Notes: generated from the sequence alone by a model not told the origin. A DNA stretch of 64,000 nucleotides from Candidatus Magasanikbacteria bacterium GW2011_GWA2_56_11 (GCA_001004885.1 LCRX01000006.1:35079-99078), one strand, 5' to 3'. Positions 16,013-50,046 are shown, counted from the stretch's first letter. A program made the numbers and translations.

Positions 16013-16798
16013 ATGGCCGAGATTCACATTCCGACTCTGGCTCCCGAAGTGCTGGCGCATGTGGGGCCAGTGGCTATCACCAACACCATGGTCAATACCT
16101 GGCTGGCGTTGGTGATATTCGCGGTGCTCGGCGTCATAATTACGCGGCAGGCCAGCTTGCGGCCCGGCAAGCTTCAAAACGGGGCGGAATACATTTTGGA
16201 ACAGCTCCTGGGTTATTTTGACCAGGTAACCGGCGACCCGGCCAAGACGCGGCGGTTTCTTCCCCTCGTCGGTTCGATTTTCTTTTTTATCCTGCTCTCA
16301 AATTGGCTGGGACTCTTGCCGGGAACCGGCAGCCTTTCGTACGGACACAGTTTTGTCCTGCGGCCGGCCAATACCGATCTTAATTTGACGCTGGCCATGG
16401 CCTTGACTTCGGTGGCCGCTTCGCATCTGTTCGGCTTTATCACCGTCGGATTTTTTAGCCACGCCGGTAAATTTTTTCAAATCAAAGGCATCTTCCGGAG
16501 TTTGACCAAAGGGCCGGTCGCTATCTTTACCGCTGTCATTGAGTTTATGGTCGGACTGATCGAAATTGTGAGCGAAGCCGCCAAAGTCTTGTCGCTGTCC
16601 CTGCGGTTGTTCGGCAACATTTTTGCCGGCGAGGTGCTTATTTCCGTCATCAGCGCCTTGGTAACGGCTTTGGTTCCGACGCCGTTTATGCTTTTGGAAC
16701 TGCTGGTTGGCCTGATTCAGGCTTCGGTTTTCGCCATGTTGACACTGGTGTATCTGACTGTCGCGAGCGAGGCGCCGCACGGGTCGGAGGAGCATTAG
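16013..16798 (+). CDS. atpB: F0F1 ATP synthase subunit a
   Basis: 261 aa and polytopic, with the conserved Arg-containing LSLSLRLFGNIFAGE helix. Confidence 0.9.
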   Translation: MAEIHIPTLAPEVLAHVGPVAITNTMVNTWLALVIFAVLGVIITRQASLRPGKLQNGAEYILEQLLGYFDQVTGDPAKTRRFLPLVGSIFFFILLSNWLGLLPGTGSLSYGHSFVLRPANTDLNLTLAMALTSVAASHLFGFITVGFFSHAGKFFQIKGIFRSLTKGPVAIFTAVIEFMVGLIEIVSEAAKVLSLSLRLFGNIFAGEVLISVISALVTALVPTPFMLLELLVGLIQASVFAMLTLVYLTVASEAPHGSEEH

Positions 16799-16904
16799 AC
16801 CGAGTTCTACTTAACGGTTCAGGGACAACAGCCGGCCAAGCCCGGACGCTGTCCCTGAACGGTTGGGCAGAATAAATTATTAATTGATACCGCCGCGAGG
16901 CTAA

Positions 16905-17180
<276 letters not shown>

Positions 17181-17254
17181 ACCGACTCTGTCCCGTAGCC
17201 GTGCTAGGGGACAGGTCTCGGATAATTTCACTTTTTGCCTTTTACTAACATTCT

Positions 17255-17824
17255 ATGAGTGCCGTTACTGAAATCGCCGTGACCGAATCGGCTCCGGTGG
17301 CCGAGCTATCCGAAACCACCGCGGCCGAGGGCGGAGTGGCCGCTTCGCTCGGGCTTAACGCCCAGCTGTTTGGCTGGCAATTATTGAATTTTGCCGTGGT
17401 CGCGCTAATCGTGTGGTTCCTCATCCTCAAGCCGCTGGCCAAAAAAATGGAAGAGCGCCGGAAGATAATCGACGACAGTCTGGATCAGGCGCGCGAGATC
17501 GAAACCCGGCACGCCCTAAGTCGGGAGCAGTACCAGACAGCGGTGGCCGAGGCCAAGGCCGAGGCCAACCGGATAGTCGCCTCGGCGCACGACGAAGCGG
17601 CGGCGCTTGCCGGCCAGATGAAAGGCGAGACTAAGAAAGAGATCGACGTTCTGGTATCCCAGGCCAAGAAAAATATCGAGCTTGACCGCCAGAATATGCA
17701 GCAGGAAGTAAAAAAAGAGATAGTGGACGTGGTGATCGCGGCCGTGGAAAAAATTCTCGAAGAGAAGCTCGACGAGAAAGAAGACCGTAAACTCGTCGAA
17801 GGGGCCCTTAAAAGCATCAAATAA
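17255..17824 (+). CDS. atpF: F0F1 ATP synthase subunit b
   Basis: Single N-terminal TM helix followed by a long charged helix. Confidence 0.8.
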   Translation: MSAVTEIAVTESAPVAELSETTAAEGGVAASLGLNAQLFGWQLLNFAVVALIVWFLILKPLAKKMEERRKIIDDSLDQAREIETRHALSREQYQTAVAEAKAEANRIVASAHDEAAALAGQMKGETKKEIDVLVSQAKKNIELDRQNMQQEVKKEIVDVVIAAVEKILEEKLDEKEDRKLVEGALKSIK

Positions 17825-17832
17825 CCATTGCT

Positions 17833-18225
17833 ATGCGCAAATTATTGCCGCGCCATTTCGGGAAAATGCTCTACCAGCTTACGCGGGATCTTCCGGAAAA
17901 AGAACTGGACCAGGCGGTGGCAGAGTTCGTGAAATTTATGGCGCGGCACCGGGCTTTTCGCCGCCTGGATCGCATTATCGCGGCTTACGAGGTCTACGCT
18001 CGGGAGCAGGACGGTGCCGAGGATATTACCCTCGTGAGCGCCCGCCCCTTACCCGAGGCGCTGGCCGCGAAAGTAGTCAGCCATTTTGGCCGCGGGGGCA
18101 AGATTGAAACGATTGTGGACGAAACCCTTATCGGCGGACTGATAGTCAAAACCCGCCGCCGCGTTCTCGACGCCAGCGTCAAAACGCAGTTGCGCGGTCT
18201 TAAAAACGACATGTTGGCGGATTGA
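17833..18225 (+). CDS. atpH: F0F1 ATP synthase subunit delta (short, 130 aa)
   Basis: The C-terminal LIGGLIVKTRRRVLDASVKTQL matches the OSCP/delta C-terminal domain; the N-terminal domain is much shorter than usual. Confidence 0.7.
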   Translation: MRKLLPRHFGKMLYQLTRDLPEKELDQAVAEFVKFMARHRAFRRLDRIIAAYEVYAREQDGAEDITLVSARPLPEALAAKVVSHFGRGGKIETIVDETLIGGLIVKTRRRVLDASVKTQLRGLKNDMLAD

Positions 18226-18239
18226 CCCGCTGTTTTACA

Positions 18240-18391
18240 GAACTCACAGCGAGCCCCCTTCGCCGAAACATAGACTGATTTTCGCGGCGCCAAAACTCGC
18301 TCTTGTGGGCTCAGACATTGGTGCCGCGAAAATCAGTCTATGTTTCGGCTCAACTTAGAGAAGAGAATTGCTAATAACTCACTATCAGTTT
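18240..18391 (+). repeat. ~150-bp intergenic repeat element, copy B, with a 27-bp perfect stem
   Basis: GCCGAAACATAGACTGATTTTCGCGGC (18273-18299) is the exact reverse complement of GCCGCGAAAATCAGTCTATGTTTCGGC (18332-18358), with a ~32-nt loop between them. The element lies between atpH and atpA. Confidence 0.85.
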
Positions 18392-18423
18392 ACACTTAAT
18401 TCAGGCAAGTTTGTTCACCGCGT

Positions 18424-19917
18424 ATGTCTTACACTGATCAGGTTATCACTTCTCTCAAAAAAAACGTGGCTTCGTTCGAGAAGCGCGTGGATGTCTCCGA
18501 GGTTGGCACCGTTATTGAAGTCGGCGACGGCATCGCCCGCATGGACGGCCTGGATAAATGCCAGGCGCTCGAGATGCTTGAATTCCCCGGCGGAATTTTC
18601 GGTATTGCCCTCAACCTGGAAGAGGAAACCGTCGGCGCGATTATTTTGGGCGACTTCAAAAAAATTAAAGAAGGCGACAGCGTTAAGCGCACCGGCCGCA
18701 TTATGTCCATCCCGGTAGGCGAGGCGATGATCGGACGCGTGGTCAATTCTCTCGGCGAAGCGGTTGACGGCCGGGGAAAAATCAAGACAGAAACTCTCTA
18801 TCCGCTTGAACGCGTGGCGCCGGGCGTGATTACCCGCGAGCCGGTGAACCGGCCGCTGCAGACCGGCATCAAGGCCATAGACGCCCTCATACCCATCGGC
18901 CGCGGCCAGCGCGAGCTTATTATCGGCGACCGCCAGACCGGGAAAACCGCCGTGGCCATAGACGCTATTATCAACCAAAAAGGCCAAAACGTGATCTGCG
19001 TCTATGTGGCTGTCGGGCAGAAAGAATCAAAGGTGGCCCGCGTGGTGGCCAAGCTCAAAGAGGCCGGCGCCATGGAGTACACGACGGTCTTTATCGCCGG
19101 CGCCTCCGAACCGGCCCCGATGTCTTATCTGGCCCCGTACGCCGGTGTCTCTCTCGCCGAGTACTTTGCCGACAAGGGCAAGGACGTACTCATAATTTAC
19201 GATGATTTGACCAAGCAGGCCTGGGCCTACCGCGAGATGTCCCTTTTGCTCCGCCGGCCGCCGGGACGCGAGGCTTATCCGGGCGATGTTTTCTATCTCC
19301 ACTCCCGTCTTTTGGAGCGCGCCTGCAATCTGAACAAAGAGCATGGTGGCGGCTCCATCACCGCGCTGCCCATTATCGAGACGCAGGCCGGAGATATCAG
19401 CGCCTATATTCCGACCAACGTTATCTCGATCACCGACGGCCAGATTTTTCTGGAAACTGAATTGTTTTACCGCGGCATCCGCCCGGCCTTGAACGTCGGT
19501 TTGTCCGTCTCGCGCGTCGGCGGTTCTGCCCAAATTAAACCCATGAAAAAAGTGGCCGGTAGCATGAAGCTCGCGCTGGCCCAATTCCGCGAACTGGAAG
19601 CGTTCGCGCAATTTTCTAGTGATCTTGATCCAGAAACCAAAAAGCAAATTGAGCGTGGTCGTCGTATTACCGAACTCCTCAAACAGCCGCAATATTCACC
19701 CATGCCGGTGGCGTCGCAGGTAATGATTATTTACGCCGTGAACAATGGTTTCTTTGATAGTACCGAAATCAGCGCTATTACCGAAAAGCAAAACGCGTTT
19801 GTGGAATTTATGAGTTCGGCGAAGAGCGCGCTATTAGATAAAATTAGTGCCGGTGAATGGAATGAAGAAACGGAAAAAACGATCGCATCATCTTGCGAAG
19901 AATTTTTTACTAAATAA
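18424..19917 (+). CDS. atpA: F0F1 ATP synthase subunit alpha
   Basis: Walker A motif GDRQTGKT. The last ~100 codons are markedly lower in GC. Confidence 0.95.
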
Positions 19918-19926
19918 TTAAATTAT

Positions 19927-20550
19927 ATGGGAGAATTTGAAAGAACTCCACGCTCCCTAGAACAAGTATTAAGTGAACGAGGTTTGACCATTGACCCTAT
20001 CGCGGCAGTTCCTGACCATATAACTATCAGACCCCTTGCTAAGGAACTACAAGTGAAAGCTAAAATTGATGTCCTCGGAATTGCTACTGTTGTTTTCTTT
20101 GAAAATCCAGAAGAGGCGGGAAAATTTATGGCAGTCTGGTGCTTCAATGGAGAAGAAACAACGAGAAAATATGGCAATAGGATTGACGTAGAAGCAGAAG
20201 TGGCGGAGTCAATTGAACTTAATTTGCGCAGTGAAAAAGAAAAAAACGAAGCTGTTGTCGAATTATATTCATTAGTTAATAGATACGGCGGCTCTATAAA
20301 GGAAATTCGTGAATTCCCCGCAGATTTAGATGGCACGGGTTCATTTTATATGAAACCTTCAGATTTTGGTCCCGAAGGCCGTACTGTTTTAAGGATGGAT
20401 TTTCCACACGGGATAACGATTTTGTCCTTGCCAGTTTCTGGTCGCGAATTGTATGTCGGTCTTTTTAAGAACGGAAAGTATCAGGGCGGAAATGGAGATT
20501 TTTCGGTTCACGAAATAGAGTCTAATATCAGAATTCTAAACGAAGGATAA
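19927..20550 (+). CDS. hypothetical protein inserted between atpA and atpG (low GC)
   Basis: 207-aa ORF with no recognisable motif. Its composition is far more AT-rich than the surrounding operon. Confidence 0.6.
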   Translation: MGEFERTPRSLEQVLSERGLTIDPIAAVPDHITIRPLAKELQVKAKIDVLGIATVVFFENPEEAGKFMAVWCFNGEETTRKYGNRIDVEAEVAESIELNLRSEKEKNEAVVELYSLVNRYGGSIKEIREFPADLDGTGSFYMKPSDFGPEGRTVLRMDFPHGITILSLPVSGRELYVGLFKNGKYQGGNGDFSVHEIESNIRILNEG

Positions 20551-20558
20551 ATGGTTAT

Positions 20559-21503
20559 ATGGCCGTCAATTCCAAAGCAATTAAACAACGCATCAAGTCG
20601 GTTAAGAACACCAAAAAAATGACCAAGGCCATGGAAATGGTCTCGGCCGCGAAGATGCGCAAAGCCGTCCAGGGTACGCTCGCCACCAGAAGCTACGCGG
20701 TCATGGCGCGCGAGCTCATGGAGGCGCTTTCGGCCGGCATCGAGGTCCAGTCTCCGCTTCTCGAGTACCGCCCGGTGGCGCGGCTTTTGGTGGTGCTTAT
20801 CAGCTCCAATCGCGGACTTTGCGGCAGCTTTAACGCGAATATCTTCAAAAAGGCCAGGCAAATTTTACGGGAGAAACAAAGCCTCGGCCGCCACCGCACG
20901 GCCCGCGGCGAAACGATCGAGCCGGCGGCCGAGATCGCCATTGACATTCTTGGCGTCGGCAAGAAGAGCGCCTGGTTCGCGCGCCAGTCCGGCTATCCGC
21001 TCGTGGCCGCGTTTGACGAGCTTTCCGAGCGGCCCACATTCGAAGAAATCATTCCGATCACGCGCTTCGTGATGGACGCTTTCAGCCAGAAAACTTATGA
21101 CAAGGTCGCCGTTTTGTTCACCGATTACAAGTCGAGTTTGGCCCAGGAAGTGAAGGTCAGACAGCTATTGCCCATTTCGGCTCACGACCTGGAAAAAATG
21201 CTTCGAGACTCGGTTGGGGATGCCGGCGATCCGCGCGGCATCGACTCCGAACATTACGTATTTGAGCCTAGCCCGTCGTTGATCGTACAGACCGTTTTAC
21301 CGCGGCTGGCGGAGGTACAGCTGTATCAGGGAATTTTGGAATCAGCGGCCAGCGAGCACAGCGCCCGCATGGTGGCGATGAAGAGCGCCACCGAAGCGGC
21401 GGGCGAGATGATTGATATGCTGACATTAGAATTCAATAAGGCGCGGCAGGCTTCCATTACTCAAGAAATCGCCGAGATTGCCGGGGGCGCGGCCGCTCTG
21501 TAA
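20559..21503 (+). CDS. atpG: F0F1 ATP synthase subunit gamma
   Basis: N-terminal MAVNSKAIKQRIKSVKNTKKMTKAMEMVSAAKMRKA is the gamma-subunit signature. Confidence 0.9.
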   Translation: MAVNSKAIKQRIKSVKNTKKMTKAMEMVSAAKMRKAVQGTLATRSYAVMARELMEALSAGIEVQSPLLEYRPVARLLVVLISSNRGLCGSFNANIFKKARQILREKQSLGRHRTARGETIEPAAEIAIDILGVGKKSAWFARQSGYPLVAAFDELSERPTFEEIIPITRFVMDAFSQKTYDKVAVLFTDYKSSLAQEVKVRQLLPISAHDLEKMLRDSVGDAGDPRGIDSEHYVFEPSPSLIVQTVLPRLAEVQLYQGILESAASEHSARMVAMKSATEAAGEMIDMLTLEFNKARQASITQEIAEIAGGAAAL

Positions 21504-21527
21504 TAATACACTTAGACACTAGAATAA

Positions 21528-22922
<1,395 letters not shown>

Positions 22923-22930
22923 TCTTTCCT

Positions 22931-23269
22931 ATGAGTAGAGACCGAGAATCGAGGCCAATAAGCCTGATGAGAGAAATGTTGCGTCAGGATTACGCCCAGG
23001 GGGTTCGTATTCTGGCGCGCGACGTCCTGGCGGTGCAGAAAGAACCGGATTGGTCCGGCTATGTCGCCGAGGTGATTGAACATGCCCGGACTGGCGAAAC
23101 ACGCAATCCGGAAGTAGACGCCATTTTGGCGCGGATACTCATGAAAAAACATTATTTAACTCTCGAAGAGATAGTAGCGATATCCGATGACGTCGCCCGA
23201 GAGTGCCTTGTTCTCCTCGGGGGAGATATAGCCGATCATTATGCAGAGTCCGGACAAGCTACAATTTAA
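22931..23269 (+). CDS. hypothetical protein (112 aa) between atpD and atpC
   Basis: Its only support is that it fills a 318-bp gap inside the operon; there is no Shine-Dalgarno and no recognisable motif. Confidence 0.3.
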   Translation: MSRDRESRPISLMREMLRQDYAQGVRILARDVLAVQKEPDWSGYVAEVIEHARTGETRNPEVDAILARILMKKHYLTLEEIVAISDDVARECLVLLGGDIADHYAESGQATI

Positions 23270-23669
23270 GCTCGTTACTCCCGATGGCATCGTCTACGAC
23301 GACGCCATCGACCAGGTCAGCATCCCGACAGCCGCGGGCGAGATTACGGTTTTGCCGCGTCATATTCCGCTCGTTTCGATTATCAGCGCGGGAGAACTAA
23401 GGCTAAAAAAGGATGGCGCCGAGATACCGCTCGTAGTCTCCGGCGGTGTTCTGGAGATTCGTCCGGGCAGCCAACTTTACGTTCTGGCCGATACCGCGGA
23501 GAGAGCCGAGCATATCGACATGGAACGCGCGGAAGCGGCCCGGGCGCGCGCCGAAGAGCTTATGAAACAGAAGGAACAGATGGCCGATGTCGACTTTGCC
23601 CGCTTGCAGGCCAAAATGGAAAAAGAACTGGCCCGCCTGCGCGTCGGCAGAAAGTACCGGAAAATTTAG
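23241..23669 (+). CDS. atpC: F0F1 ATP synthase subunit epsilon
   Basis: N-terminal beta-sandwich (LVTPDGIVYDDAIDQVSIPTAAGEITVLP) plus a C-terminal helical hairpin. Confidence 0.85.
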   Translation: MQSPDKLQFKLVTPDGIVYDDAIDQVSIPTAAGEITVLPRHIPLVSIISAGELRLKKDGAEIPLVVSGGVLEIRPGSQLYVLADTAERAEHIDMERAEAARARAEELMKQKEQMADVDFARLQAKMEKELARLRVGRKYRKI

Positions 23670-23838: not shown

Positions 23839-23958
23839 ATGAAGTGCTCACAGTGCGCGACCATGATCGAGGGGGACATGCAGTGCCCTGATTGCGGGGT
23901 GTGCGAGCTGTGCTGCAATTGCAGCACCATGTCGTACGACAGCTCGGCCGAGGAATAG
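23839..23958 (+). CDS. 39-aa cysteine-rich peptide (8 Cys; CxxC-x9-CxxC-xx-CxxCC-x-C)
   Basis: ATG...TAG, translating to MKCSQCATMIEGDMQCPDCGVCELCCNCSTMSYDSSAEE. It sits between a consensus promoter and a clean terminator. It is not in the ORF track because it is shorter than 60 aa. Confidence 0.5.
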   Translation: MKCSQCATMIEGDMQCPDCGVCELCCNCSTMSYDSSAEE

Positions 23959-23983
23959 CTCTCGGTTTGGCATTTTATTGAAT

Positions 23984-24012
23984 CCCGCAGAGAGCTGCGG
24001 GTTTTTATTTTG
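23984..24012 (+). terminator. rho-independent terminator
   Basis: CCCGCAG-AGAG-CTGCGGG followed by TTTTTATTTT. Confidence 0.65.
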
Positions 24013-26552: not shown

Positions 26553-27743
26553 ATGGTTCAAGGTGAAACTCGACCCCAAGATATAACCAGGGAGACAGTC
26601 GAAACAGGAGAGAGGTTGCACCCGGTCGTGGCGGATGTATTCGCCGACCTGGAAGGAGAAAACGGAAGAAATTATGAAGGCGATAATTTGGAGACGATTA
26701 GACGCCGAACTCGGGAAACAAACGGGCGTAAGCCCTTTGACGAAGAAAAAGTATTGGTCCAAGAATTAACCAGCCAGTTATGGCCCGTGGATAAGCTAGA
26801 TCCCCATGTGGTCAAGCGGGCCAGAACGATCCTCAGCGAAAAAGCCAACAATCATCTTGACGATCGGGTGGGCCGGGCAGAGTTTAAAATTGAACGAGAT
26901 ATCTCGGATGAAGAAGCTATCGAAATGGCCCGCGCGATGCAGATGCGGTTTTTTGCCGAGCGGGCCGTGAAGGGCGCTACCTACCCGGGTTATGCTGCCA
27001 GGGCGCTGGAGCCGCTTGCCGGCTGCAGGGTGACGGAGATGGATGGCGATCGAAAAATGATCGATACCCGCAAACCTGATGAACCTACCCCCCACCGGAT
27101 CGTCGCCGGGCCGGAGCAATTTCGAGTCGCCGACGAACAAGTGGTCGACGCCTACAATACTTTTAGGGCTTTTTTGGATCTCAAAGGAACTAAATTAACC
27201 CTGGACCAGGCGGACGCGGCTGAATTCAAAAGGCGTTTTCCGAATTTGAGGCTAAACAGCGAAGGCCTGGCTTATCTTGCCGGCGGCAACGATCAGCAAC
27301 GCCGCGATAATCTGCAAACGGCCGAGCGGGATTACCTGATGGTAAGAGAAAAACTGGCTGAACGCCTGCAGAGTGAACTTGGCGGCAGCGAGCCCTTGAC
27401 GGAAAATCAGCTGCGCAGACGCCTCAAAGAGGTGGAAGCTGAAAACAGGCAGCTGCATGGAGATTTAGAGTTAGAACAGGACAACAGGCGGTCGGCCGAA
27501 CAGCGCGCCGAAGCAGCCGAGCGTAATGTCGGAATTGCTGAAGTGGAAGAAAAAGGATTGCGGCTCGCGGCCACGGAGGCCAAGAAGAAGGGCGAGGCTA
27601 ATGTTGAGGCCTTGAAAAGGGATGTAAACGCCAAGCTGGCGGAGATACAAGCGCTCCTAGCCGGGGCCAGGTTCGGCAATAAGGGTGAGGTGATAGAAGG
27701 AGCCCAGGGGGCCATAACTGAATTGTTAAAGTCCCTTAAGTAA
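26553..27743 (+). CDS. hypothetical charged protein with a C-terminal coiled coil
   Basis: 396 aa with no TM segment. The last ~120 aa are heptad-like and rich in E, R, K, A and L. Confidence 0.5.
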   Translation: MVQGETRPQDITRETVETGERLHPVVADVFADLEGENGRNYEGDNLETIRRRTRETNGRKPFDEEKVLVQELTSQLWPVDKLDPHVVKRARTILSEKANNHLDDRVGRAEFKIERDISDEEAIEMARAMQMRFFAERAVKGATYPGYAARALEPLAGCRVTEMDGDRKMIDTRKPDEPTPHRIVAGPEQFRVADEQVVDAYNTFRAFLDLKGTKLTLDQADAAEFKRRFPNLRLNSEGLAYLAGGNDQQRRDNLQTAERDYLMVREKLAERLQSELGGSEPLTENQLRRRLKEVEAENRQLHGDLELEQDNRRSAEQRAEAAERNVGIAEVEEKGLRLAATEAKKKGEANVEALKRDVNAKLAEIQALLAGARFGNKGEVIEGAQGAITELLKSLK

Positions 27744-27840: not shown

Positions 27841-27869
27841 TTGACAGTCGGTGAACTGCTGAGTATTAT
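27841..27869 (+). promoter_or_regulatory. near-consensus sigma70 promoter for the complex-I-like operon
   Basis: TTGACA, a 17-bp spacer, then TATTAT, 44 nt upstream of the first ATG. Confidence 0.6.
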
Positions 27870-27912
27870 ATAGCCAACGGGATTATATTTTTGCCGCCGC
27901 CGGCGCGGATAT

Positions 27913-28434
27913 ATGCTTAAGCTGTACGCCAAGATATTCGCCACTCCCCAGACAGCGATCGGCCTGCCGGAACTCAAGGACGGGGAGGTCGAAATCGTTG
28001 GAAAAAAAATCGCGGCCAAAGTGGCCAAGCTGTTTCGCGGCTCGCTCGCTATCCGCGAGGTGGACGCCGGCTCGACCAACGCCTGCGAGCAGGAGCTGAC
28101 CGCGCTCGGGAATTCTTATTACGACGTCGAGAGATTCGGCATTCATTTCGTCGCCTCGCCCCGGCACGCCGACATGCTTATGGTTACCGGACCCGTGTCG
28201 AGAAACATGAAAGAGGCGCTCATCCGGACGTATGAGGCCACGCCAGACCCGAAAATCGTGGTGGCGGTCGGCGACGACGCCATAGACGGCGGGATTTTTA
28301 AGGGCTCCTATGCCGTCCTCGACGGGGTCCACAACGTCATTCCGGTTGATTTCCGGATTCCCGGCGATCCGCCGTCGCCCAAAACGATTTTGATCCATTT
28401 GCTTAAAATTCTCGAGATCATCGATTCCCGCTAA
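27913..28434 (+). CDS. NuoB / hydrogenase small-subunit-like protein lacking the Fe-S cluster cysteines
   Basis: The NuoB fold motifs are present but the ligands are replaced. GSTNACEQE stands in for CCxxE, VAVGDDAIDGG for GxCAxxGG, and IPGDPPSP for GCPPRP. The whole protein has a single Cys. Confidence 0.75.
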   Translation: MLKLYAKIFATPQTAIGLPELKDGEVEIVGKKIAAKVAKLFRGSLAIREVDAGSTNACEQELTALGNSYYDVERFGIHFVASPRHADMLMVTGPVSRNMKEALIRTYEATPDPKIVVAVGDDAIDGGIFKGSYAVLDGVHNVIPVDFRIPGDPPSPKTILIHLLKILEIIDSR

Positions 28435-28459
28435 GCTGTCCGGCCGGCAGCCTTCATTT

Positions 28460-30505
28460 ATGTTTACCGCGGTCAGCGCCCAATCAAGTTTTTTCCTCGC
28501 CCTCCTGTTTTTGGGGCTGGGATCGCTGGGTTCTGCTTGCCTGTGGAAAAAAGACGCGGCCGCCAATTGGTGGGGCAACCTCTGCGCGATAACGGCGTCT
28601 GTGTTTGGGCTGCTGTCGGCCATCCGCGTTCTTCTTGGCGGGGCCGCGTTTTCTTTGGCGGCCGATTCCCCGCTGGGGGCGCTGTCATTTTCCTTTACGG
28701 TTGATAAACTGTCCGCTTTTTTCATTTTTGTTATCTCGCTCATCGCCCTGCCGGCCTCCATTTATGGCCTGGGTTACGTGAAGCATTACTACGGCAGATA
28801 TTCTCCCGGCGTCCTCGGTTTTTTCTACAATCTTTTTCTGGCCGGCCTGTTTTTGGTCGTGAGCGCCGATAATGCCCTTTTTTTCCTGACAGTTTGGGAA
28901 ATCATGTCCCTGGCTTCGTACTTTTTGGTCATTTTCGAACACCGCGAGCCGGATAATATCAGCGCCGGCACGCGTTACTTTATCATGACCCACGCCGGGA
29001 CCGCTTGTATCATACTGGCGTTTCTTGTCTTGTATCGTTTTACGGGATCGTTTGAGTTTGACGTCATCAGGGAAAATTTCGCCGCTGTTCCGGCCTACGC
29101 AAAGAATATTGTTTTTTTGCTCACGCTCGCCGGTTTTGGCACCAAGGCCGGCATTATACCGCTGCACATTTGGCTGCCAAGCGCGCACCCGGCGGCGCCG
29201 ACGCACGTGTCCGCGCTCATGTCCGGGGTCATGATAAAAACCGGCATTTACATGTTTATCCGGATTTTGATTGATTTCTCGCCTGGCGCGCCGTTGTGGT
29301 GGGGGATAGCGGTTCTCCTGATTGGAGCGGCGTCATCGCTTTTCGGCGTTTTGTACGCCCTCACGGAGCATGACATTAAGAAACTGTTGGCTTATCACAG
29401 TATCGAGAATATCGGCATCATTCTTTTGGGCCTGGGCAGCGCGCTTGTTTTTTGGGCTGCCGGAGCGGAATCACTCGCCATGCTCGGTCTCATCGCGGCC
29501 TTGTTCCACACCCTCAATCACGCCGTTTTCAAGGCGCTGCTGTTTTTGGGCGCCGGCTCGGTTATCTCCCAGACGCGCACCCGCAACATGGAGGAGTACG
29601 GCGGCCTGATACGGACTATGCCTTATACCGCGGCTTTGTTTCTGACCGGTTCTCTGGCCATATCGGCTTTGCCGCCTTTCAATGGTTTTGCGAGCGAATG
29701 GCTGACTTTTCAGTCGCTTTTTAGCGGGTTCGGGTCATTCGGCCGTTCGGTGGCCGGGGTATTCGCGCTCTCGGCCGGAGCGCTGGCCTTTACTGGCGGC
29801 CTGGCCGCGGCCTGTTTTGTCAAAGCATTCGGCGCGACCTTCTTGGCGCGGCCGCGCAGTGTCGAAGCCGCGCGCTCCAGAGAGTCGGCGCCCTCCATGG
29901 TGCTGGGCATGGGCGTGCTTGCCCTGCTAACGCTCGTCATTGGAATTTTTTCCGGAGTCGTTTCCCGCGTGCTCTCGGTCGTGGTCGCCGACCGGCCGGG
30001 ATTCTCTACGGTGCCGGTTCCTGTTTCCGTCCCGGCCGCGAGCCTGAGCCTGGGCAGCGGTTTCGCCGCGATGTCTTTGCCGCTCGTCTTTGTGTCCCTG
30101 GCCGCCGTGAGCGCGCTGGTGGCTTTTTTGACGTATCTCGCGACGGCCGGCCGGCGCGTAAAAATTGGCCGCACCTGGGATTGCGGTACCGACCTCACCC
30201 CCCGCATGGAGATAACCGCGACCGGGTTTTCCCGTTCTCTCATTTCGATATTTCGGGGAATATTAAAGCCGAGCAAACAGACTACCATCGAGTATCGCGA
30301 CGCGGATAGCCGGTTTTTCCCCCAGACCAGATCGGTTAAACTGGAGATTAAAGATGTTTACAGCGCTTATTTTTACCGTCCGGTCGAGCGCCTGACAATG
30401 GCTCTGGCGGCGCAGATAAAAAAAATCCAGTGCGGCAATGTAAACGCCTATATCGTTTACTTGTTTGCCGCCCTGATAGCGCTTTTAGTCTGGGCTGTGA
30501 TCTAA
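28460..30505 (+). CDS. HyfB / NuoL / MrpA-like antiporter-type membrane subunit
   Basis: 681 aa and polytopic, with FLTVWEIMSLASYFLV and WLPSAHPAAPTHVSAL motifs. Confidence 0.8.
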   Translation: MFTAVSAQSSFFLALLFLGLGSLGSACLWKKDAAANWWGNLCAITASVFGLLSAIRVLLGGAAFSLAADSPLGALSFSFTVDKLSAFFIFVISLIALPASIYGLGYVKHYYGRYSPGVLGFFYNLFLAGLFLVVSADNALFFLTVWEIMSLASYFLVIFEHREPDNISAGTRYFIMTHAGTACIILAFLVLYRFTGSFEFDVIRENFAAVPAYAKNIVFLLTLAGFGTKAGIIPLHIWLPSAHPAAPTHVSALMSGVMIKTGIYMFIRILIDFSPGAPLWWGIAVLLIGAASSLFGVLYALTEHDIKKLLAYHSIENIGIILLGLGSALVFWAAGAESLAMLGLIAALFHTLNHAVFKALLFLGAGSVISQTRTRNMEEYGGLIRTMPYTAALFLTGSLAISALPPFNGFASEWLTFQSLFSGFGSFGRSVAGVFALSAGALAFTGGLAAACFVKAFGATFLARPRSVEAARSRESAPSMVLGMGVLALLTLVIGIFSGVVSRVLSVVVADRPGFSTVPVPVSVPAASLSLGSGFAAMSLPLVFVSLAAVSALVAFLTYLATAGRRVKIGRTWDCGTDLTPRMEITATGFSRSLISIFRGILKPSKQTTIEYRDADSRFFPQTRSVKLEIKDVYSAYFYRPVERLTMALAAQIKKIQCGNVNAYIVYLFAALIALLVWAVI

Positions 30506-30509
30506 TTTT

Positions 30510-31439
30510 ATGTCATTGTTCGGTTTGTGGTTTTTGCAACTCCTCCTTGTGCCGGCCTTGTCGCCGCTGTTTATCGGCATTGTCCGCCGGGTTAAGGCCA
30601 GGCTGCAGAATCGGGTGGGCGCGAGGGTAACCCAGCCGTACCGCGATATTCTGAAACTTTTTCGCAAGGACGAGGTCGTAAGCGCCGATGCTTCCTGGAT
30701 CTTTAGCAGCGCGCCGTATCTTATTTTTGCCGTCTCCATTCTTTTGGGAGCCAGTATCCCGCTTCTATCCGCGCACCTCACGGCTACCGTGCTCGGCGAT
30801 CTTCTGACGGTCGTCTACGTTATTGCCCTCAGCACGTTCTTTTTGGCTTTAGCCGGCATGGATACCGGCAACGCTTTCGGCGGATTCGGATCAAGTCGCG
30901 AAATGACCGTGGCCGCTTTGACCGAGGGCGGGCTTATTTTTTCGCTCCTGGCCCTGGCGTTCACGGCCCATTCGAGCAATCTGTTTGTCATCGCCGGGGC
31001 TATTTCCAGCTTGTCGCTTCTCGCTTTTACCCCGATTATTTTGGCTTTTGTGGCGTTTGTTATCGCGCTTCTCGCCGAAACCGGCCGGTTTCCCTTTGAC
31101 AATCCGGCCACCCATCTCGAGCTGACCATGATCCACGAAGCCATGATCCTCGAATATTCCGGCAAGAAACTGGCGCTCATGGAGTGGGCGGCGGCCAACA
31201 AGTTCATGCTGTTTCTCGCGCTCGGAGCGAACCTGTTTTTTCCGTGGGGGCTCGCCGCTTCGGCTTCGCCCCCGGCGCTTATTTTGGCCCTGGGAGCCTT
31301 AGTTTTCAAGCTGTTAGTCTTTTGCGTTTTGGTCGCCCTCCTGGAGTCGAGCCTGGCCAAATTTCGGTTTTTCCGCCTGCCTGATCTTTTGTTCATGTCG
31401 TTCATATTAAGCCTGATCGCGCTTTCGCTCATCGTGTAG
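30510..31439 (+). CDS. HyfC / HycD / NuoH-like membrane subunit
   Basis: 309 aa with eight TM segments and a NuoH-like loop pattern. Confidence 0.7.
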   Translation: MSLFGLWFLQLLLVPALSPLFIGIVRRVKARLQNRVGARVTQPYRDILKLFRKDEVVSADASWIFSSAPYLIFAVSILLGASIPLLSAHLTATVLGDLLTVVYVIALSTFFLALAGMDTGNAFGGFGSSREMTVAALTEGGLIFSLLALAFTAHSSNLFVIAGAISSLSLLAFTPIILAFVAFVIALLAETGRFPFDNPATHLELTMIHEAMILEYSGKKLALMEWAAANKFMLFLALGANLFFPWGLAASASPPALILALGALVFKLLVFCVLVALLESSLAKFRFFRLPDLLFMSFILSLIALSLIV

Positions 31440-31443
31440 GACT

Positions 31444-32103
31444 ATGGATTTTTTTAGCGCCCAATTTCTCTTTTTCGTCCAGACGCTGCTGTTTGCCTCG
31501 GTTATTTTCATGCACCTGTCCAAAAAAAGCGCCTCCGTTATTTTTCTTTATCAGGTTCAATCGCTTATAGTCGCCTGCCTGCTTCTCGGTTCGGCCTTAG
31601 CCGAGTCAGCGATTTTTCCGCTTTTCGTGGCCGTCGTGGTGTGCGCGGTAAAAGTAGTCATCGCGCCGCATTTCTTTCGGCGGCTCACCCGGGAGCTGCA
31701 GCTCAAATTTTCCGCCAGCACCTATTTGAGCGGTCCCTTGACGCTTATCATTCTCGCGGCCTTGACGGCGTTTACCTACTCGCACTTTTTTGCCCCTCTT
31801 TCCACTCTCAACGCGTCAAACGCCCGCGCTCTTCTTCTCGCCGCGGCGATGATGCTGGCCGCCTTGTTTTTGATCGTCAACCGCAAGGGCGCCCTCTCCC
31901 AAATGATCGGCATTTTGTCCTTGGAAAACGCCATTGTCGCTTTTGCTTTTCTTTCCGGGCTCGAACAATCGCCGGCTCTGGAGCTCGGCGTCCTGTTCGA
32001 CATTTTAATGTGGATAATCATCGCCACGGTGTTCGCGTCCATGGTTTACCGGCAATTCGGTTCTCTCGACGTGACGGCGATGAACTCTCTCAAAGAAGAA
32101 TAA
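31444..32103 (+). CDS. HyfE / NuoK-like membrane subunit
   Basis: 219 aa with a LSLENAIVAFAFL motif. Confidence 0.65.
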   Translation: MDFFSAQFLFFVQTLLFASVIFMHLSKKSASVIFLYQVQSLIVACLLLGSALAESAIFPLFVAVVVCAVKVVIAPHFFRRLTRELQLKFSASTYLSGPLTLIILAALTAFTYSHFFAPLSTLNASNARALLLAAAMMLAALFLIVNRKGALSQMIGILSLENAIVAFAFLSGLEQSPALELGVLFDILMWIIIATVFASMVYRQFGSLDVTAMNSLKEE

Positions 32104-32107
32104 ATCT

Positions 32108-33544
32108 ATGCTGCTCATCATTCTTCTCTGCGTTCCGTTCGCCGCTTCCGTCCTGTCTTGGCTGGTCAAAAAAAGGACTCTCGTTTTGGAATCTTTGGCG
32201 GCGGGCGCCTCGACAATCGAACTGGCCGCGGCGCTCTCTTTGGCGGGTTCGGTGGCGAAAAGCGGGCCGTATTCCCTGACCGATAGTTTTTCGGTTGACC
32301 CGCTGGGAGCGGTCGTCATCTTGATTTTGGCCATTATTGGCGTGGTGGCGGCGTGGTATTCGGCCGGCTACCTGCGGGCCGAAGTGGAGAAGAGCATCAT
32401 CGGTTTTCACCGGGTGCGGCAATATTTTGTTCTGCTGCATCTTTTTATTTTTGCCATGTTCTTTGCCGTCGCCACGACCAGCCCCACCCTCATGTGGATC
32501 GCCATCGAAGCCACGACGCTCTCCACCGCCTTTCTTATCAGTTTTTACAATAATGCCTCGGCCACGGAAGCGGCCTGGAAATATTTGCTTGTCAACTCGG
32601 TCGGATTACTTCTCGGATTTTTTGGCACGCTTTTGTTTTTGTCCCCGGCCGAATCAGCCGGACTCACTGATTGGAATTCGCTCTTTGCCGCCGCGGCGGG
32701 CTTTGATCCGTTTATCGCGAAGATAGCCTTCGTTTTTGTATTCATCGGATACGGCACCAAGGTCGGATGGGTGCCTATGCACACCTGGCGGCCGGACGCC
32801 TACAGCAAGGCGCCGATTCCGGTGGTGGCGCTGTTTTCGGGCTCGCTCCTGAGCGTGGCTTTTTTGGCCGTGCTCCGTTTCAAGCTGATCGCGGACGCCA
32901 GCCTGGGCGGAGATTTTTCCGCCAACATGCTCATTGGCTTCGGACTCTCTTCCATCGTCGTGGCCGCTTTCAGTATGCTCGGACAAAAAAATTATAAGCG
33001 GTTGCTCGCCTATTCGAGCATCAAGCACGCGGGTATAATCGCCCTGGGATTTGGTTTCGGGGGCGCCGCGGCCGGAGCCGCTCTCCTGCATCTTATCTAT
33101 CACGCCCTGGCCAAGTCAGCTCTGTTTTTGTCGGCGGGAAATATTTTTTTGAAATACAGTTCGACCAAGGTGGAGAACGTGCGCGGGGTGTTGTCGGCTC
33201 TGCCGGTTACCGGCGTCCTGTTTCTCGCCGGATTTGTGGCCATAATCGGCCTGCCGCCGTTCGGTTTGTTTTTTACCGAATTATCCATTCTAGCGGCCGG
33301 AATTCAGTATCATCCGGCGGTATCCGTGATTGTCCTCTTGGCGCTCGCCTTGGGGTTCATCGGCTTTCTGCGCCATGCGGTTGCCATGATGTTTGGCGAA
33401 CGCGAAAAAAGGATAGCGCCGGGCGAAGCCGGAGTTTGGACCATCGTTCCCATTATTATTCTTTTGGCCATTCTAGCGGCCGCGAGTTGGTATCTGCCGG
33501 TGTCGTTTCGGTCGTTATTGGAATCTGCCGTCTTAGCCTATTAA
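32108..33544 (+). CDS. HyfF / NuoM / NuoN-like antiporter-type membrane subunit
   Basis: 478 aa with the proton-conducting-membrane-transporter pattern (WVPMHTWRPDAYSKAP). Confidence 0.75.
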   Translation: MLLIILLCVPFAASVLSWLVKKRTLVLESLAAGASTIELAAALSLAGSVAKSGPYSLTDSFSVDPLGAVVILILAIIGVVAAWYSAGYLRAEVEKSIIGFHRVRQYFVLLHLFIFAMFFAVATTSPTLMWIAIEATTLSTAFLISFYNNASATEAAWKYLLVNSVGLLLGFFGTLLFLSPAESAGLTDWNSLFAAAAGFDPFIAKIAFVFVFIGYGTKVGWVPMHTWRPDAYSKAPIPVVALFSGSLLSVAFLAVLRFKLIADASLGGDFSANMLIGFGLSSIVVAAFSMLGQKNYKRLLAYSSIKHAGIIALGFGFGGAAAGAALLHLIYHALAKSALFLSAGNIFLKYSSTKVENVRGVLSALPVTGVLFLAGFVAIIGLPPFGLFFTELSILAAGIQYHPAVSVIVLLALALGFIGFLRHAVAMMFGEREKRIAPGEAGVWTIVPIIILLAILAAASWYLPVSFRSLLESAVLAY

Positions 33545-33548
33545 GTCT

Positions 33549-35120
33549 ATGCTTTCCAGCTCCTCTTTTGCCGCCTATATTCCTCCTGGGTTTAAGCCCA
33601 AATTCGAAGGTAACCTGGCCACCGGCGCGGTTTCTGTTTCCGAGATCGCCGGGGTGTGCCACGACCTGTACTTTACGCGTGGGCTCGAATTAAAAACTAT
33701 CACGGCTACCGACGAGCGGAACAGGGGCGGAGGTTTTAGAATTTTCTACGTATTCGGCGTGCCCAAACAAAATTTGTTTATCATCCCGTACATCGTTCTG
33801 GCCGACACCGCGGAATTTCCTTCTCTGACCAAAGATATCCACGAAGCTTCGAGCTACGAACGGCGGATTATGACGTTTTTCGGCCTCAGCCCGGCCGGCC
33901 ACCCGCATCCGCGGCCGCTTATCCTCCATGAAAATTGGCCGGCGGACGTTTTTCCGCTGCGCCAGGATTTTAATTGGCAAGAGCGTCCGGCCGCCGCGCG
34001 CGGCAATTACGAATTTTACCGGGTGGAAGGGGAGGGGATTTACGAAATTCCGGTGGGTCCGGTGCACGCGGGCATTATCGAGCCTGGCCACTTTCGTTTT
34101 AGCGTCGCCGGAGAGGAAATTATGCTGCTTGAGGCCAAACTTGGTTACAAACACAAGGGAATTGAAAAACTTTTCGAGAACCTACCGCTCGCGAGCACAT
34201 TGCGTCTGGCCGAGAGGATTTCCGGGGACACGTCGTTTACCCACGCTCTGGCTTTTTGTCAGGCGATTGAACAGCTGACTGAATTGCCGGTTCCCAGGCG
34301 CGCCGCCTACCTCCGCGTCATTTTTTCCGAGCTGGAACGGCTTGCCAACCATGCCAACGACATCGGTTTTATCATGCTCGATACGGGTTATAGTTTTGGC
34401 GGCAGCCAAGGGGCGCGGCTGCGTGAAGTTATCATGCGGTGGAACGAACGCCTAACCGGCAGCCGCTTCCTTCGCGGCGTTAATGTTTTCGGCGGCGTGG
34501 CCAAGGATATTACTCCGGAAGCGGGTAACGAACTCGAGGCCGCGCTCCAGGCGTGGCAGCGCGACTTTGACCAGGTGATCGCCATTGCCGAGGATAGCCA
34601 CTCTTTGCTCAATCGTCTCGAGGACACCGGCAAACTGGATTATCAGCTAGCCGTTGATCACGGCATTGTAGGCGTGGCCGGGCGCGCCGTTGGACTCAAG
34701 AAGGACGCGCGGCTCGATTATCCCTACGCGGCTTACGCTGAGCTTCCCCTAGAGATCGCGGTCGAGAAAGACGGCGACGTCCGGTCGAGATTTTATGTCC
34801 GCGTCAAAGAAGCGCGCTCTTCGGTCGCGCTCATTTTGGCGGCCTTGAAGAACCTGCCTAGGGGTGAGTGTTCGGTCGGGGAACAACGCGTTAAATTAGC
34901 CAGGAACCGCTGCGCTGTCGGCCTGGCCGAAGGCTGGCGAGGCGAGATTGTCTATTTTGTTATGACCGGGGATACAGGCGATCTCGCGAGAGTTGACGTT
35001 CGCGATCCGTCATTCGTCAACTGGGCCGTGCTCGGCCATGCCGGCAGAGGCAATGTCGTGCCGGATTTTCCCCTGATCAACAAGAGTTTCAATTTGTCCT
35101 ACTCGGGTAACGACTTGTAG
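33549..35120 (+). CDS. fused NuoC-NuoD / HycE-like large subunit lacking the [NiFe] cysteine ligands
   Basis: NuoC-like N-terminus (ERRIMTFFGLSPAGHPHPRPL), then NuoD-like GPVHAGIIEPGHFRF in place of RxCGxCxxxH, and C-terminal DPSFVNWAVLGH in place of DPCxxCxxH. Confidence 0.75.
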   Translation: MLSSSSFAAYIPPGFKPKFEGNLATGAVSVSEIAGVCHDLYFTRGLELKTITATDERNRGGGFRIFYVFGVPKQNLFIIPYIVLADTAEFPSLTKDIHEASSYERRIMTFFGLSPAGHPHPRPLILHENWPADVFPLRQDFNWQERPAAARGNYEFYRVEGEGIYEIPVGPVHAGIIEPGHFRFSVAGEEIMLLEAKLGYKHKGIEKLFENLPLASTLRLAERISGDTSFTHALAFCQAIEQLTELPVPRRAAYLRVIFSELERLANHANDIGFIMLDTGYSFGGSQGARLREVIMRWNERLTGSRFLRGVNVFGGVAKDITPEAGNELEAALQAWQRDFDQVIAIAEDSHSLLNRLEDTGKLDYQLAVDHGIVGVAGRAVGLKKDARLDYPYAAYAELPLEIAVEKDGDVRSRFYVRVKEARSSVALILAALKNLPRGECSVGEQRVKLARNRCAVGLAEGWRGEIVYFVMTGDTGDLARVDVRDPSFVNWAVLGHAGRGNVVPDFPLINKSFNLSYSGNDL

Positions 35121-35161
35121 CACTGGTTGTCTGTCCGACCCGGCAATCCAGGCCCGAAGCC

Positions 35162-35190
35162 TTGACTAAACTCAAAAATTCCTTTATACT
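35162..35190 (+). promoter_or_regulatory. near-consensus promoter upstream of typA, followed by a hairpin and T-tract leader
   Basis: TTGACT, a 17-bp spacer, then TATACT. A CCGAGT-TCTCAA-ACTCGG plus TTTT hairpin follows at 35192-35216. Confidence 0.5.
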
Positions 35191-35276
35191 AGCCGAGTTC
35201 TCAAACTCGGTTTTAAGATCACAAGTTCGTCTTTCCTGTCCGGTTGAAGCTCCGGCGGGCTAGCCGCCCAGATTAT

Positions 35277-49626: not shown

Positions 49627-50046
49627 ATGAAAAGTGTCATGATTTTCGGGACCTTTGACATCCTTCATCCCGGACACATCGCGCTTTTCAAACAAGCTAG
49701 GGGCTATGGCGACCATCTCACAGTCGTTCTCGCCCGCGACGTTACGGTCCGAAAAGTAAAAGGCAGTTTGCCGTTGCATGATGAAAAACAGCGCCGCGAA
49801 ATCCTCGCTCATATTGATCTGATCGACCGCGTCGTGATGGGGGACACGGATAATGCTTACCGCATTATCAAGCGCGTCCGGCCCCGTGTAATCGCCCTGG
49901 GCTATGACCAGACAGCCTTTGTCGACCGGCTCGAAGAGCAGCTCAAAGAGTTCAAACTGCCGGCCAAAATCGTCCGGCTCAAACCGCATCGCGAGAATAA
50001 GCATAAGACTCATAAAATTAAACGTCTCCTCGCGCAGCAACTATGA
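49627..50046 (+). CDS. cytidylyltransferase-like nucleotidyltransferase (RibL/TagD family)
   Basis: FGTFDILHPGH matches the (H/T)xGH motif. Confidence 0.6.
   Translation: MKSVMIFGTFDILHPGHIALFKQARGYGDHLTVVLARDVTVRKVKGSLPLHDEKQRREILAHIDLIDRVVMGDTDNAYRIIKRVRPRVIALGYDQTAFVDRLEEQLKEFKLPAKIVRLKPHRENKHKTHKIKRLLAQQL

Follow-up and report, generated by a model that had tools for sequence, protein, structure and literature searches.

The subject of this work is a cassette of six genes in a 64,000-nucleotide stretch of DNA, here called the window, from Candidatus Magasanikbacteria bacterium GW2011_GWA2_56_11 (contig UY92_C0006), a tiny groundwater bacterium of the candidate phyla radiation (CPR). The six products are relatives of subunits of complex I and of group 4 hydrogenases, and together they would form a complete, self-contained membrane complex which descends from the Ehr branch of this superfamily and has probably abandoned electron transfer. 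Judged by their sequences, its small subunit (g1) and large subunit (g6) offer no canonical site for Ni-Fe, for a proximal/N2 cluster or for quinone. We propose that this cassette and its close relatives, referred to below as type A, are redox-independent ion machines coupled to the proton gradient in an Mrp-like manner and working with an H+-ATPase, a reading to which we give a probability of roughly 0.42. The cassette comprises the following features.

27841..27869, + strand: sigma-70-like promoter TTGACA-17-TATTAT (predicted; 11/12 consensus positions), 44 nt 5′ of the g1 start codon
27913..28434, + strand: g1, NuoB/HycG-like small subunit, 173 amino acids (GenBank KKW42496.1, annotated 'hypothetical protein')
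28460..30505, + strand: g2, HyfB/HycC/NuoL-like antiporter-like subunit, 681 amino acids (profile search; aligned with HycC and MbhH)
30510..31439, + strand: g3, HyfC/HycD/NuoH-like subunit, 309 amino acids (profile search; aligned with HycD)
31444..32103, + strand: g4, HyfE-like membrane subunit with a NuoK-like C-terminal half, 219 amino acids (profile search, sub-threshold)
32108..33544, + strand: g5, HyfF/NuoM/N-like antiporter-like subunit, 478 amino acids (profile search)
33549..35120, + strand: g6, fused NuoC-NuoD/HycE-like large subunit, 523 amino acids (GenBank KKW42501.1, annotated 'hypothetical protein')

A sequence-only reading made beforehand had described a promoter followed by six tightly packed genes in a Hyf/Ehr architecture. 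The site, which is promoter-like by its match to the consensus, and six open reading frames (ORFs) on the + strand are indeed present, and profile searches assign NuoB-, HyfB-, HyfC/NuoH-, HyfE- and HyfF-like subunits and a fused NuoC-NuoD. The gaps from g1 to g6 are 25, 4, 4, 4 and 4 nt; that reading had given 2–25 nt.

The small subunit g1 matches the Oxidored_q6/NuoB profile with 89 bits and NF005012 with 116.7 bits, at the cut-off of the latter. Its best structural and sequence relative is HycG of E. coli (7Z0S_G, E 5e-30), and it was also aligned with MbhJ of P. furiosus (6CFW_J). In these alignments the four [4Fe-4S] ligand positions are occupied by T55, C58, D122 and D152, with three of the four cysteines replaced. 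The pattern T-C-D-D, and C58 as the single cysteine of the protein, agree with what had been claimed for g1, namely one cysteine in total and a lost cluster signature. The 120 closest homologues of g1 (73–93% identical) come from Magasanik-, Kerfeld- and Uhrbacteria, Parcubacteria, Paceibacterota and one Lentisphaeria metagenome-assembled genome (MAG). Among these close homologues position 55 is Thr in 110, Ser in 8 and Asp in 3, C58 is kept in 119/121, and D121, D122 and D152 are invariant. The 82 distinct type A small subunits show TCDD (45), DCDD (21) and DCDN (12), followed by SCDD, TADD, SEDD and a small number of other patterns. In no case is there more than one cysteine at the ligand positions, and D122 is almost invariant. 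In g1 the substituted positions remain polar or acidic. Of 91 type A sequences, about 10 carry Ala, Glu or Val in place of C58, and 13 carry Asn in place of D152. An AlphaFold2 model of g1, made from a 39-sequence alignment, had a mean pLDDT (predicted local distance difference test) of 46 and was unusable for the geometry of the T/C/D/D pocket.

Small subunits with other cluster-less patterns (SEGD, NEGD, DAAD, DADN, SAES, ECED, TDES) account for some 25 of the 150 best cluster representatives found with g1 (P0131-P0280), and the loss of the proximal-cluster cysteines is consequently wider than the type A clade of CPR and Lentisphaerae. A Logan contig (SRR22388031, 2-1647; locus L168) encodes a partial large subunit which retains both Ni-Fe motifs, EHVCGMCAFSH and NLCYACVDR. 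It is followed after 15 nt by a small subunit with N-E-G-D at the canonical cluster positions and three other cysteines nearby (KPC..GDGAC..YAC). The same combination, a Ni-Fe-type large subunit with a small subunit devoid of canonical proximal-cluster ligands, is found in P0177, P0206 and P0241.

The large subunit g6 matches NuoC (PF00329, Complex1_30kDa) fused to NuoD (PF00346, Complex1_49kDa). Its NiFeSe_Hases score, 15.3 bits, is below the cut-off, and its best relative is HycE (7Z0S_E, E 7e-78). In the alignment with HycE all four Ni-Fe cysteines are substituted, in keeping with the earlier statement that neither [NiFe] motif would be found: C→S and C→D in RISGD, which replaces the N-terminal RxCGxC, and C→S and C→G in NLSYSGNDL. 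At the C terminus NLSYSG stands in place of DPCxxC, two residues before the end of the protein. RISGD and NKSFNLSYSGNDL are common to all 80 genomic relatives described below. The positions of His38 and Tyr87 of T. thermophilus Nqo4, which we take to be the quinone head-group ligands, align with Ile and Gly in g6 (alignment to 2fug_4).

The membrane subunits present a different picture from the two peripheral ones: the canonical Lys/Glu/His residues and the NuoH-type carboxylates are invariant, and the antiporter-like and NuoH-like subunits had rightly been called intact. g2 matches Proton_antipo_M and the NCBIfam model NF005086 ('hydrogenase 4 subunit B') with 677 bits against a cut-off of 667. 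Its positions invariant in type A and in the related type B are E147 in transmembrane helix (TM) 5, K229 (TM7), H236, H243, K260 (TM8), H350, H354, K358 and E413 (TM12). The TM7 Lys found in g2 is absent from E. coli HycC. g5 also matches Proton_antipo_M, with HyfF as its best NCBIfam match, and its residues invariant in both types are E134, K218, H225, K259, H328, H332 and K336. As in NuoM, there is a Glu in TM12 (FFTELSIL). The two antiporter-like subunits thus have in common an invariant TM5 Glu, TM7 Lys, TM8 His/Lys, TM11 Lys and TM12 Glu, to which many NuoH-like carboxylates are added, and both are matched by the models of Mrp A/D. g3 matches NADHdh/NuoH (PF00146) with 153 bits and is colinear with HycD over residues 9–305. 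In both types 21 of its charged or His positions do not vary, among them E131, E139, E190, D197, E204, E210 and E215. g4 is the least clear of the six. Its match to HyfE (NF008556, 55 bits) is colinear over the full length and below the cut-off, and that to NuoK (PF00420) is weak (21.5 bits, also below the cut-off) and concerns the C-terminal half. A sequence search of the PDB with g4 returned no relative; its invariant residues are K70, R147 and E161.

Genes which could supply or mature redox cofactors were sought throughout the 64 kb. ORF and profile scans revealed no hyp, NuoEFG, NuoI or quinone-biosynthesis genes and no 2x[4Fe-4S] ferredoxin-like ORF, in agreement with the prediction that the window would hold no ferredoxin-like, NuoEFG or hyp genes. 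NuoA and NuoJ are also missing from the window, and the operon includes no small membrane gene other than the HyfE/NuoK-like g4. In having no separate HycF/NuoI-like gene this locus is not unusual, since nearly all of its 73 cluster-bearing Ehr relatives lack one as well. To judge by the ligands that are gone, the complex probably carries no cofactor of any kind. The suggestion of a redox-dead membrane complex, possibly an ion-translocation module, is supported to this extent, 'redox-dead' being deduced from the missing ligands.

To place the cassette among its relatives, we scanned genomes with g6, using one genome per species, and sorted the 80 loci returned by gene order. A metagenome scan with g1 gave 80 further type A loci. 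Two arrangements exist: type A, with the order B-L-H-K-N-CD, and type B, with the order L-H-K-N-CD-B. Type A includes the window, Patescibacteria, Parcubacteria, Victivallales, Lentisphaerae and three unclassified MAGs, with large subunits 60–64% identical. Type B large subunits are 44–46% identical in Planctomycetota, Terriglobia and Omnitrophota, and 38–42% in many Burkholderiales, Gallionellaceae, Nitrosomonadales and other lithotrophs. All 80 large subunits lack the Ni-Fe cysteines and carry RxSGD and NKSFNLSYxGxD, and for these reasons the whole set is Ehr in the sense of the literature. The two types are separated by their small subunits: in the genome scan, the ligand positions are C-C-C-C in 70/70 type B and T/D-C-D-D in every type A sequence. 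The motifs which surround the former active site of the large subunit (EIPVGP.HAG.IEPGHFRF, HKG.EK.FE, SGD, EGWRG and PDFPL.NKSFNLSY.G.D) are equally invariant in both types. An electron-entry subunit is encoded in none of about 90 loci.

In a rough neighbour-joining tree, which carries no support values, type A forms one clade, sister to the type B sequences of Omnitrophota, Terriglobia and Planctomycetota, and the Lentisphaerae sequences are nested among those of CPR. This agrees with the monophyletic CPR Ehr clade lacking Ni-Fe cysteines in the large-subunit phylogeny of Jaffe et al. 2020 (PMC7304191). The existence of that clade has therefore been known since 2020. In the searchable literature we did not find the cluster loss of the type A small subunit, the acidic replacement set, the B-first order, the synteny with atp genes or the carbonic-anhydrase neighbour; an earlier remark on cluster-less NuoB homologues is possible. 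In the Ehr of Margulisbacteria, Firmicutes and hyperthermophiles, NuoB carries a fused NuoI-like Fe-S domain (PMC6349859 Suppl. Note 4), and this fusion is also present in L012 and in the second copy of L006.

Several observations concern the surroundings of these operons. In Lentisphaerae GWF2_38_69, the type A cassette lies inside a second, classical Ehr operon (L006, 24-12319, and L097), between a 503-amino-acid large subunit and a four-Cys, NuoB-NuoI-fused small subunit, giving one array of 12 genes with junction gaps of 6–11 nt. This array points to tandem duplication or insertion at the CD|B junction as the origin of the B-first order. In the complete Victivallales chromosome (L004) the cassette is flanked by unrelated housekeeping and signalling genes only. 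The type B operon of Betaproteobacteria (loci L013-L080) lies directly downstream of metG, the methionyl-tRNA synthetase gene, in 31 loci. Genes for DnaE, an ApbC-like ATPase and dCTP deaminase occur near type B operons, a SulP-family transporter gene is directly upstream on the same strand in 5 loci, and a Kup K+ transporter gene is within 5.5 kb in 6. No redox partner gene was found among the neighbours of type B operons.

When the genes around 91 type A loci were clustered, a single partner recurred strongly, the F1Fo ATP synthase. In the window its operon had been placed about 4 kb from the cassette, and this is where it lies:

16013..23669, + strand: F1Fo ATP synthase operon (a, c, b, delta, alpha, an ORF of 207 amino acids without known identity, gamma, beta, epsilon), 4.2 kb upstream of the cassette

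An atp operon ends at most 3 kb upstream of g1 in 13/47 distinct type A loci for which 1.5 kb or more of upstream sequence is available, and in 10/34 when the requirement is raised to 3 kb. Near type B loci the count is 0/73. For type A this greatly exceeds what chance adjacency would give in genomes of about 1000 genes. In 15/16 linked loci the atp genes and g1 share a strand, the exception being L161, where atpB and atpF are divergent. atpC immediately precedes g1 in most linked loci, with gaps from 4 to about 1600 nt. The linked loci span several sub-lineages (pairwise identity 63–95%, five ligand patterns) and are interleaved with unlinked ones; the cassette also occurs at sites distant from any atp operon. 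AF(A/T)EA(I/V)AIY is the c-subunit sequence in the window and in six linked loci. This sequence lacks the Na+-binding signature, which we take to consist of Gln/Ser/Thr; the ATPase is for this reason probably H+-coupled, and a Na+-coupled ATP synthase was set aside. The ORF of 207 amino acids (19927-20550, +), between atpA and atpG, has no Pfam match, and no gene occupies this position in the other CPR atp operons seen (L083, L171, L173).

A second, rarer neighbour is a protein of about 350–385 amino acids related to the carboxysomal carbonic anhydrase CsoSCA. Its gene is immediately upstream of g1 in L113, where it stands between atpC and g1, and in L135 and L139, and it also adjoins the type B operon of L078. 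The protein has the beta-carbonic-anhydrase motifs CxDxR (CMDGR) and YHFS..GC and matches Pfam CsoSCA_cat with 32.3 and 23.5 bits (cut-off 21.5). The best PDB match is the carboxysome shell carbonic anhydrase 2FGY. Weaker candidates are found in L100 and L104 and one recognised by motif only in L162, which gives 3 firm cases, or up to 6 with the weak ones, among about 58 type A loci. No member was found in the 64-kb window. Over 1300 proteins of CPR and Nitrosomonas belong to this family. In two CPR loci (L171, 1417-11068, and L173, 3057-11080) one or two such genes follow atpC directly, in the slot taken elsewhere by the Ehr cassette, and two of four sampled CPR genes have neither an atp nor an Ehr context. 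About 5 kb downstream L171 also encodes a group-3-like NiFe hydrogenase cluster, hypA included. In Nitrosomonas (L169, 520-11053; GCA_900110385.1), an operon encodes an antiporter-like subunit, DabA (1090 amino acids), three more antiporter-like subunits and, in last place, a CsoSCA-domain protein of 350 amino acids. Such a DAB-type system greatly exceeds the two-gene DAB in size.

The cassette is under clear constraint. The g1-type small subunit is the most conserved of the six in type A, with 49% of its positions at least 90% conserved and a mean pairwise identity of 69%, and the cluster-bearing small subunit of type B is nearly equal (49% and 73%). The six genes are intact and tightly packed across CPR classes and Lentisphaerae, at 52–69% mean identity. 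These sequence comparisons exclude a decaying relic with good confidence.

How might such a complex work? In a fermentative CPR cell the F-ATPase would hydrolyse ATP and so create a proton gradient. Since we infer that the complex is unable to transfer electrons, its proton channels would be coupled to something other than redox: the ion gradient itself would be the driving or the driven partner. The membrane part, made of two antiporter-like, one NuoH-like and one HyfE-like subunit, would conduct protons by way of the canonical Lys/Glu/His axis. The module, a proton-coupled cation exchanger or a device for ion homeostasis, may spend the gradient on the exchange or expulsion of cations and on stabilising the cytoplasmic pH. 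The NuoB/NuoCD cap would close and gate the NuoH cavity. In Mrp, a cation bound beside the TM5 Glu of the first antiporter-like subunit starts the proton/charge cascade (PMC7419157). Here the starting charge would come from the NuoH/HyfE side and from the acid-lined pocket (D121, D122, D152, T/D55), the former cluster pocket with its Asp, Thr and Cys serving as the cation or proton site which triggers the cascade. The four ligand positions of g1 must lie close together, because the homologues ligate one cubane there. Two or three buried carboxylates would most easily mean a bound cation or shared protons, a point on which we can only speculate. The direction of transport, the nature of the ion and the role of the acidic pocket are likewise deduced.

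Several points weigh against this proposal. An antiporter needs none of NuoB, NuoCD and NuoH, yet these are the best conserved components, and the proposal leaves their conservation unexplained. Cluster-bearing type B Ehr has an identical large-subunit pocket (EPGHFRF, SGD, NKSFNLSY.G.D), which hints at chemistry there rather than a passive cap. The counts of atp synteny are not phylogenetically independent, and the CsoSCA-like gene beside the cassette in some loci points to a catalytic partner.

This last gene suggests the main alternative, an energy-coupled carbonic anhydrase or inorganic-carbon device resembling DAB (DabA on a NuoL-like DabB) or the CupA module of NDH-1MS, in which the proton-motive force would make the interconversion of CO2 and HCO3- directional with the help of a beta-class, CsoSCA-like enzyme encoded next to the cassette or elsewhere. 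There is a precedent, since DAB2 is a carbonic anhydrase which sits on a complex I-like subunit and depends on the proton-motive force (bioRxiv 10.64898/2026.03.13.711513). The firm and weaker neighbours listed above, the place of the same family at the end of the Nitrosomonas DabA operon and its position after the atp operon in two CPR genomes all fit. We nevertheless regard it as unlikely: such neighbours accompany few type A loci, the window has none, half of the sampled CPR genes stand apart from atp and Ehr genes, the retention of NuoB, NuoCD and NuoH is unexplained here too, and no docking site is known. In a further reading the pocket of the large subunit, common to all Ehr, would perform non-redox chemistry or bind a ligand, coupled to proton translocation, and the [4Fe-4S] cluster of other Ehr would be dispensable for the core function. 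The motifs round the former Ni-Fe site are as invariant in type A as in type B, the peripheral subunits are the most strongly constrained, and the literature assigns Ehr no function (PMC10284858, PMC4378227, PMC7894505). This idea has no candidate substrate, its sole basis is conservation, and the motifs could be structural, at the NuoH/NuoB interface, so that we find it distinctly unlikely.

Aspartate is able to ligate Fe-S clusters in a few proteins, and a cryptic redox enzyme might place an unconventional cofactor at the Thr/Cys/Asp/Asp site or rely on a partner protein whose gene lies elsewhere in the genome. Most sequences retain C58, the absences recorded here cover 64 kb of the genome, and the cluster-less small subunit of L168 is paired with a large subunit that retains its Ni-Fe cysteines. 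Against this stand the type A sequences in which C58 or D152 is replaced, the absence of an electron-entry subunit from all of the roughly 90 loci, the Ile and Gly at the presumed Nqo4 quinone positions, and the general lack of respiratory chains in CPR; together they make the idea very improbable. We give least credence, and very little, to an evolutionary relic or to a mere scaffold or assembly factor of the ATP synthase that transports nothing itself. Synteny with the atp operon and the loss of all known catalytic ligands would suit it, but the six large genes are intact and packed in distant lineages, the Lys/Glu residues of the proton channels are invariant, and cassettes occur far from atp operons.

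The proposal of a redox-independent ion machine can be extended. It is conceivable, if rather doubtful, that the type A cassette and an H+-coupled F1Fo ATPase form the core chemiosmotic circuit of many CPR, in which no redox chemistry takes part and which the CsoSCA-like enzyme joins in some lineages. The chain would run from ATP through the proton gradient to the directional handling of ions or of CO2/HCO3-. CPR account for a large share of bacterial diversity and possess an ATP synthase but no respiratory chain, and their membrane energetics are unresolved. A widespread and strongly conserved assembly free of cofactor sites and repeatedly tied to the atp operon is a testable candidate for the missing part of their proton circuit. 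If the proposal is right, nature has produced an 'electron-free complex I', and the conserved Ser/Asp/His/Glu pocket of all Ehr works in the absence of electron transfer. For complex I this would be a natural experiment: the NuoB/D/H interface, the E-channel and the antiporter-like subunits are kept and the redox trigger is removed, which bears on the debate over how events at the NuoB/D/H junction drive proton pumping. The possible roles of Ehr would be narrowed, and the Ehr branch would be tied to energy-coupled carbonic anhydrases as possible partners. A fully cofactor-free and yet highly conserved complex I-like assembly would surprise specialists and give a direct handle on membrane energetics in CPR.

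The remaining genes of the window are housekeeping genes, almost all on the + strand. They include those for leucyl-tRNA synthetase, ComEC, parts of a type IV pilus, an ABC exporter, TypA, an AddA-like helicase, MreBC, PBP2, GreA, lysyl- and seryl-tRNA synthetases and a Mur ligase. An Rfam scan of the window returned no RNA family match. Two candidate partners of the cassette were rejected. The sole CxxCxxCxxxC match in the window, a possible hidden ferredoxin, is a peptide of 39 amino acids whose gene (23884-24003, +) has its own promoter-like site (TTGACA-17-TATATT) and terminator hairpin and is present in no related locus; the peptide contains 9 cysteines (MKCSQCATMIEGDMQCPDCGVCELCCNCSTMSYDSSAEE). 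A coiled-coil protein of 396 amino acids encoded upstream (26553-27743) has no Pfam match, and its gene is not kept beside other cassettes. Downstream, we looked for a terminator-like site in the interval between g6 and typA (35121-35276) and saw none. typA has a promoter-like site of its own (TTGACT-17-TATACT, 35162-35190) and adjoins the cassette also in L110, L142 and L145, which is probably lineage synteny. The leucyl-tRNA synthetase (790-3699, +) shows a NUDIX match (residues 426–517) beside its editing domain, and at 50043-51080 (+) a Ham1-type ITPase (inosine triphosphatase) is fused to a NUDIX domain.

Among characterised systems, equivalents of HyfB, HyfE and HyfF link the locus to hydrogenase 4 of E. 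coli (formate hydrogenlyase (FHL)-2, HyfA-J), and FHL-1 (HycB-G, PDB 7Z0S) supplies the best relatives of g1 (HycG), g2 (HycC), g3 (HycD) and g6 (HycE). These enzymes possess a Ni-Fe site, a proximal cluster, HyfA/HyfH/HycB/HycF, a formate dehydrogenase partner and hyp genes, none of which was seen here; with no Ni-Fe ligands, the locus is not a hydrogenase. Complex I (Nuo/Nqo) and Mbh/Mbs share with it homologous NuoB, C, D, H, K, L, M and N modules and the L-shaped architecture. In contrast to complex I, the locus has no N2 cluster, NuoI, NuoEFG, NuoA or NuoJ, and the positions we take to be quinone ligands are not conserved; lacking N2, NuoI, NuoEFG and quinone ligands, it is not a complex I. 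It differs from Mbh in having no Ni-Fe site and from Mbs in having no sulfur-reducing cluster chain.

The Mrp antiporter, driven by the proton-motive force (PMC7419157), is redox-free like the proposed machine. It has two antiporter-like subunits (MrpA's N-terminal portion, together with MrpD) with the same Lys/Glu axis and a small NuoK-like subunit, and both antiporter-like subunits of the locus show the Mrp-type TM5 Glu, TM7 Lys, TM8 Lys/His and TM12 Lys/Glu. NuoH, NuoB and NuoC/D are missing from Mrp, whereas the locus lacks the small subunits of the Mrp cation path, and for this latter reason it is not an Mrp antiporter. DAB (DabA/DabB) and NDH-1MS (CupA) also use a complex I-type proton-conducting subunit in a non-respiratory task, and a beta-carbonic-anhydrase-like gene lies in the neighbourhood of some type A loci. 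DAB consists of DabA and one NuoL-like subunit only, and the carbonic-anhydrase-like gene is missing from the window and from most type A loci; NDH-1MS is still redox-driven.

The closest likeness is to cluster-bearing Ehr, known from Geobacter (EhrA-S), Margulisbacteria/Saganbacteria, Nitrospira and Sulfobacillus and found here in Burkholderiales, Gallionellaceae and Planctomycetota. It has the same six subunit families, a fused NuoC-NuoD with no Ni-Fe cysteines, the motifs RxSGD and NKSFNLSYxGxD, and a large subunit 38–46% identical. Those complexes differ in their four [4Fe-4S] cysteines, in the NuoI-like 2x[4Fe-4S] fusion which they sometimes carry, in the order L-H-K-N-CD-B and in having no synteny with atp genes. 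As far as its genes allow us to judge, the locus is an Ehr complex in all respects except the Fe-S cluster of its small subunit.

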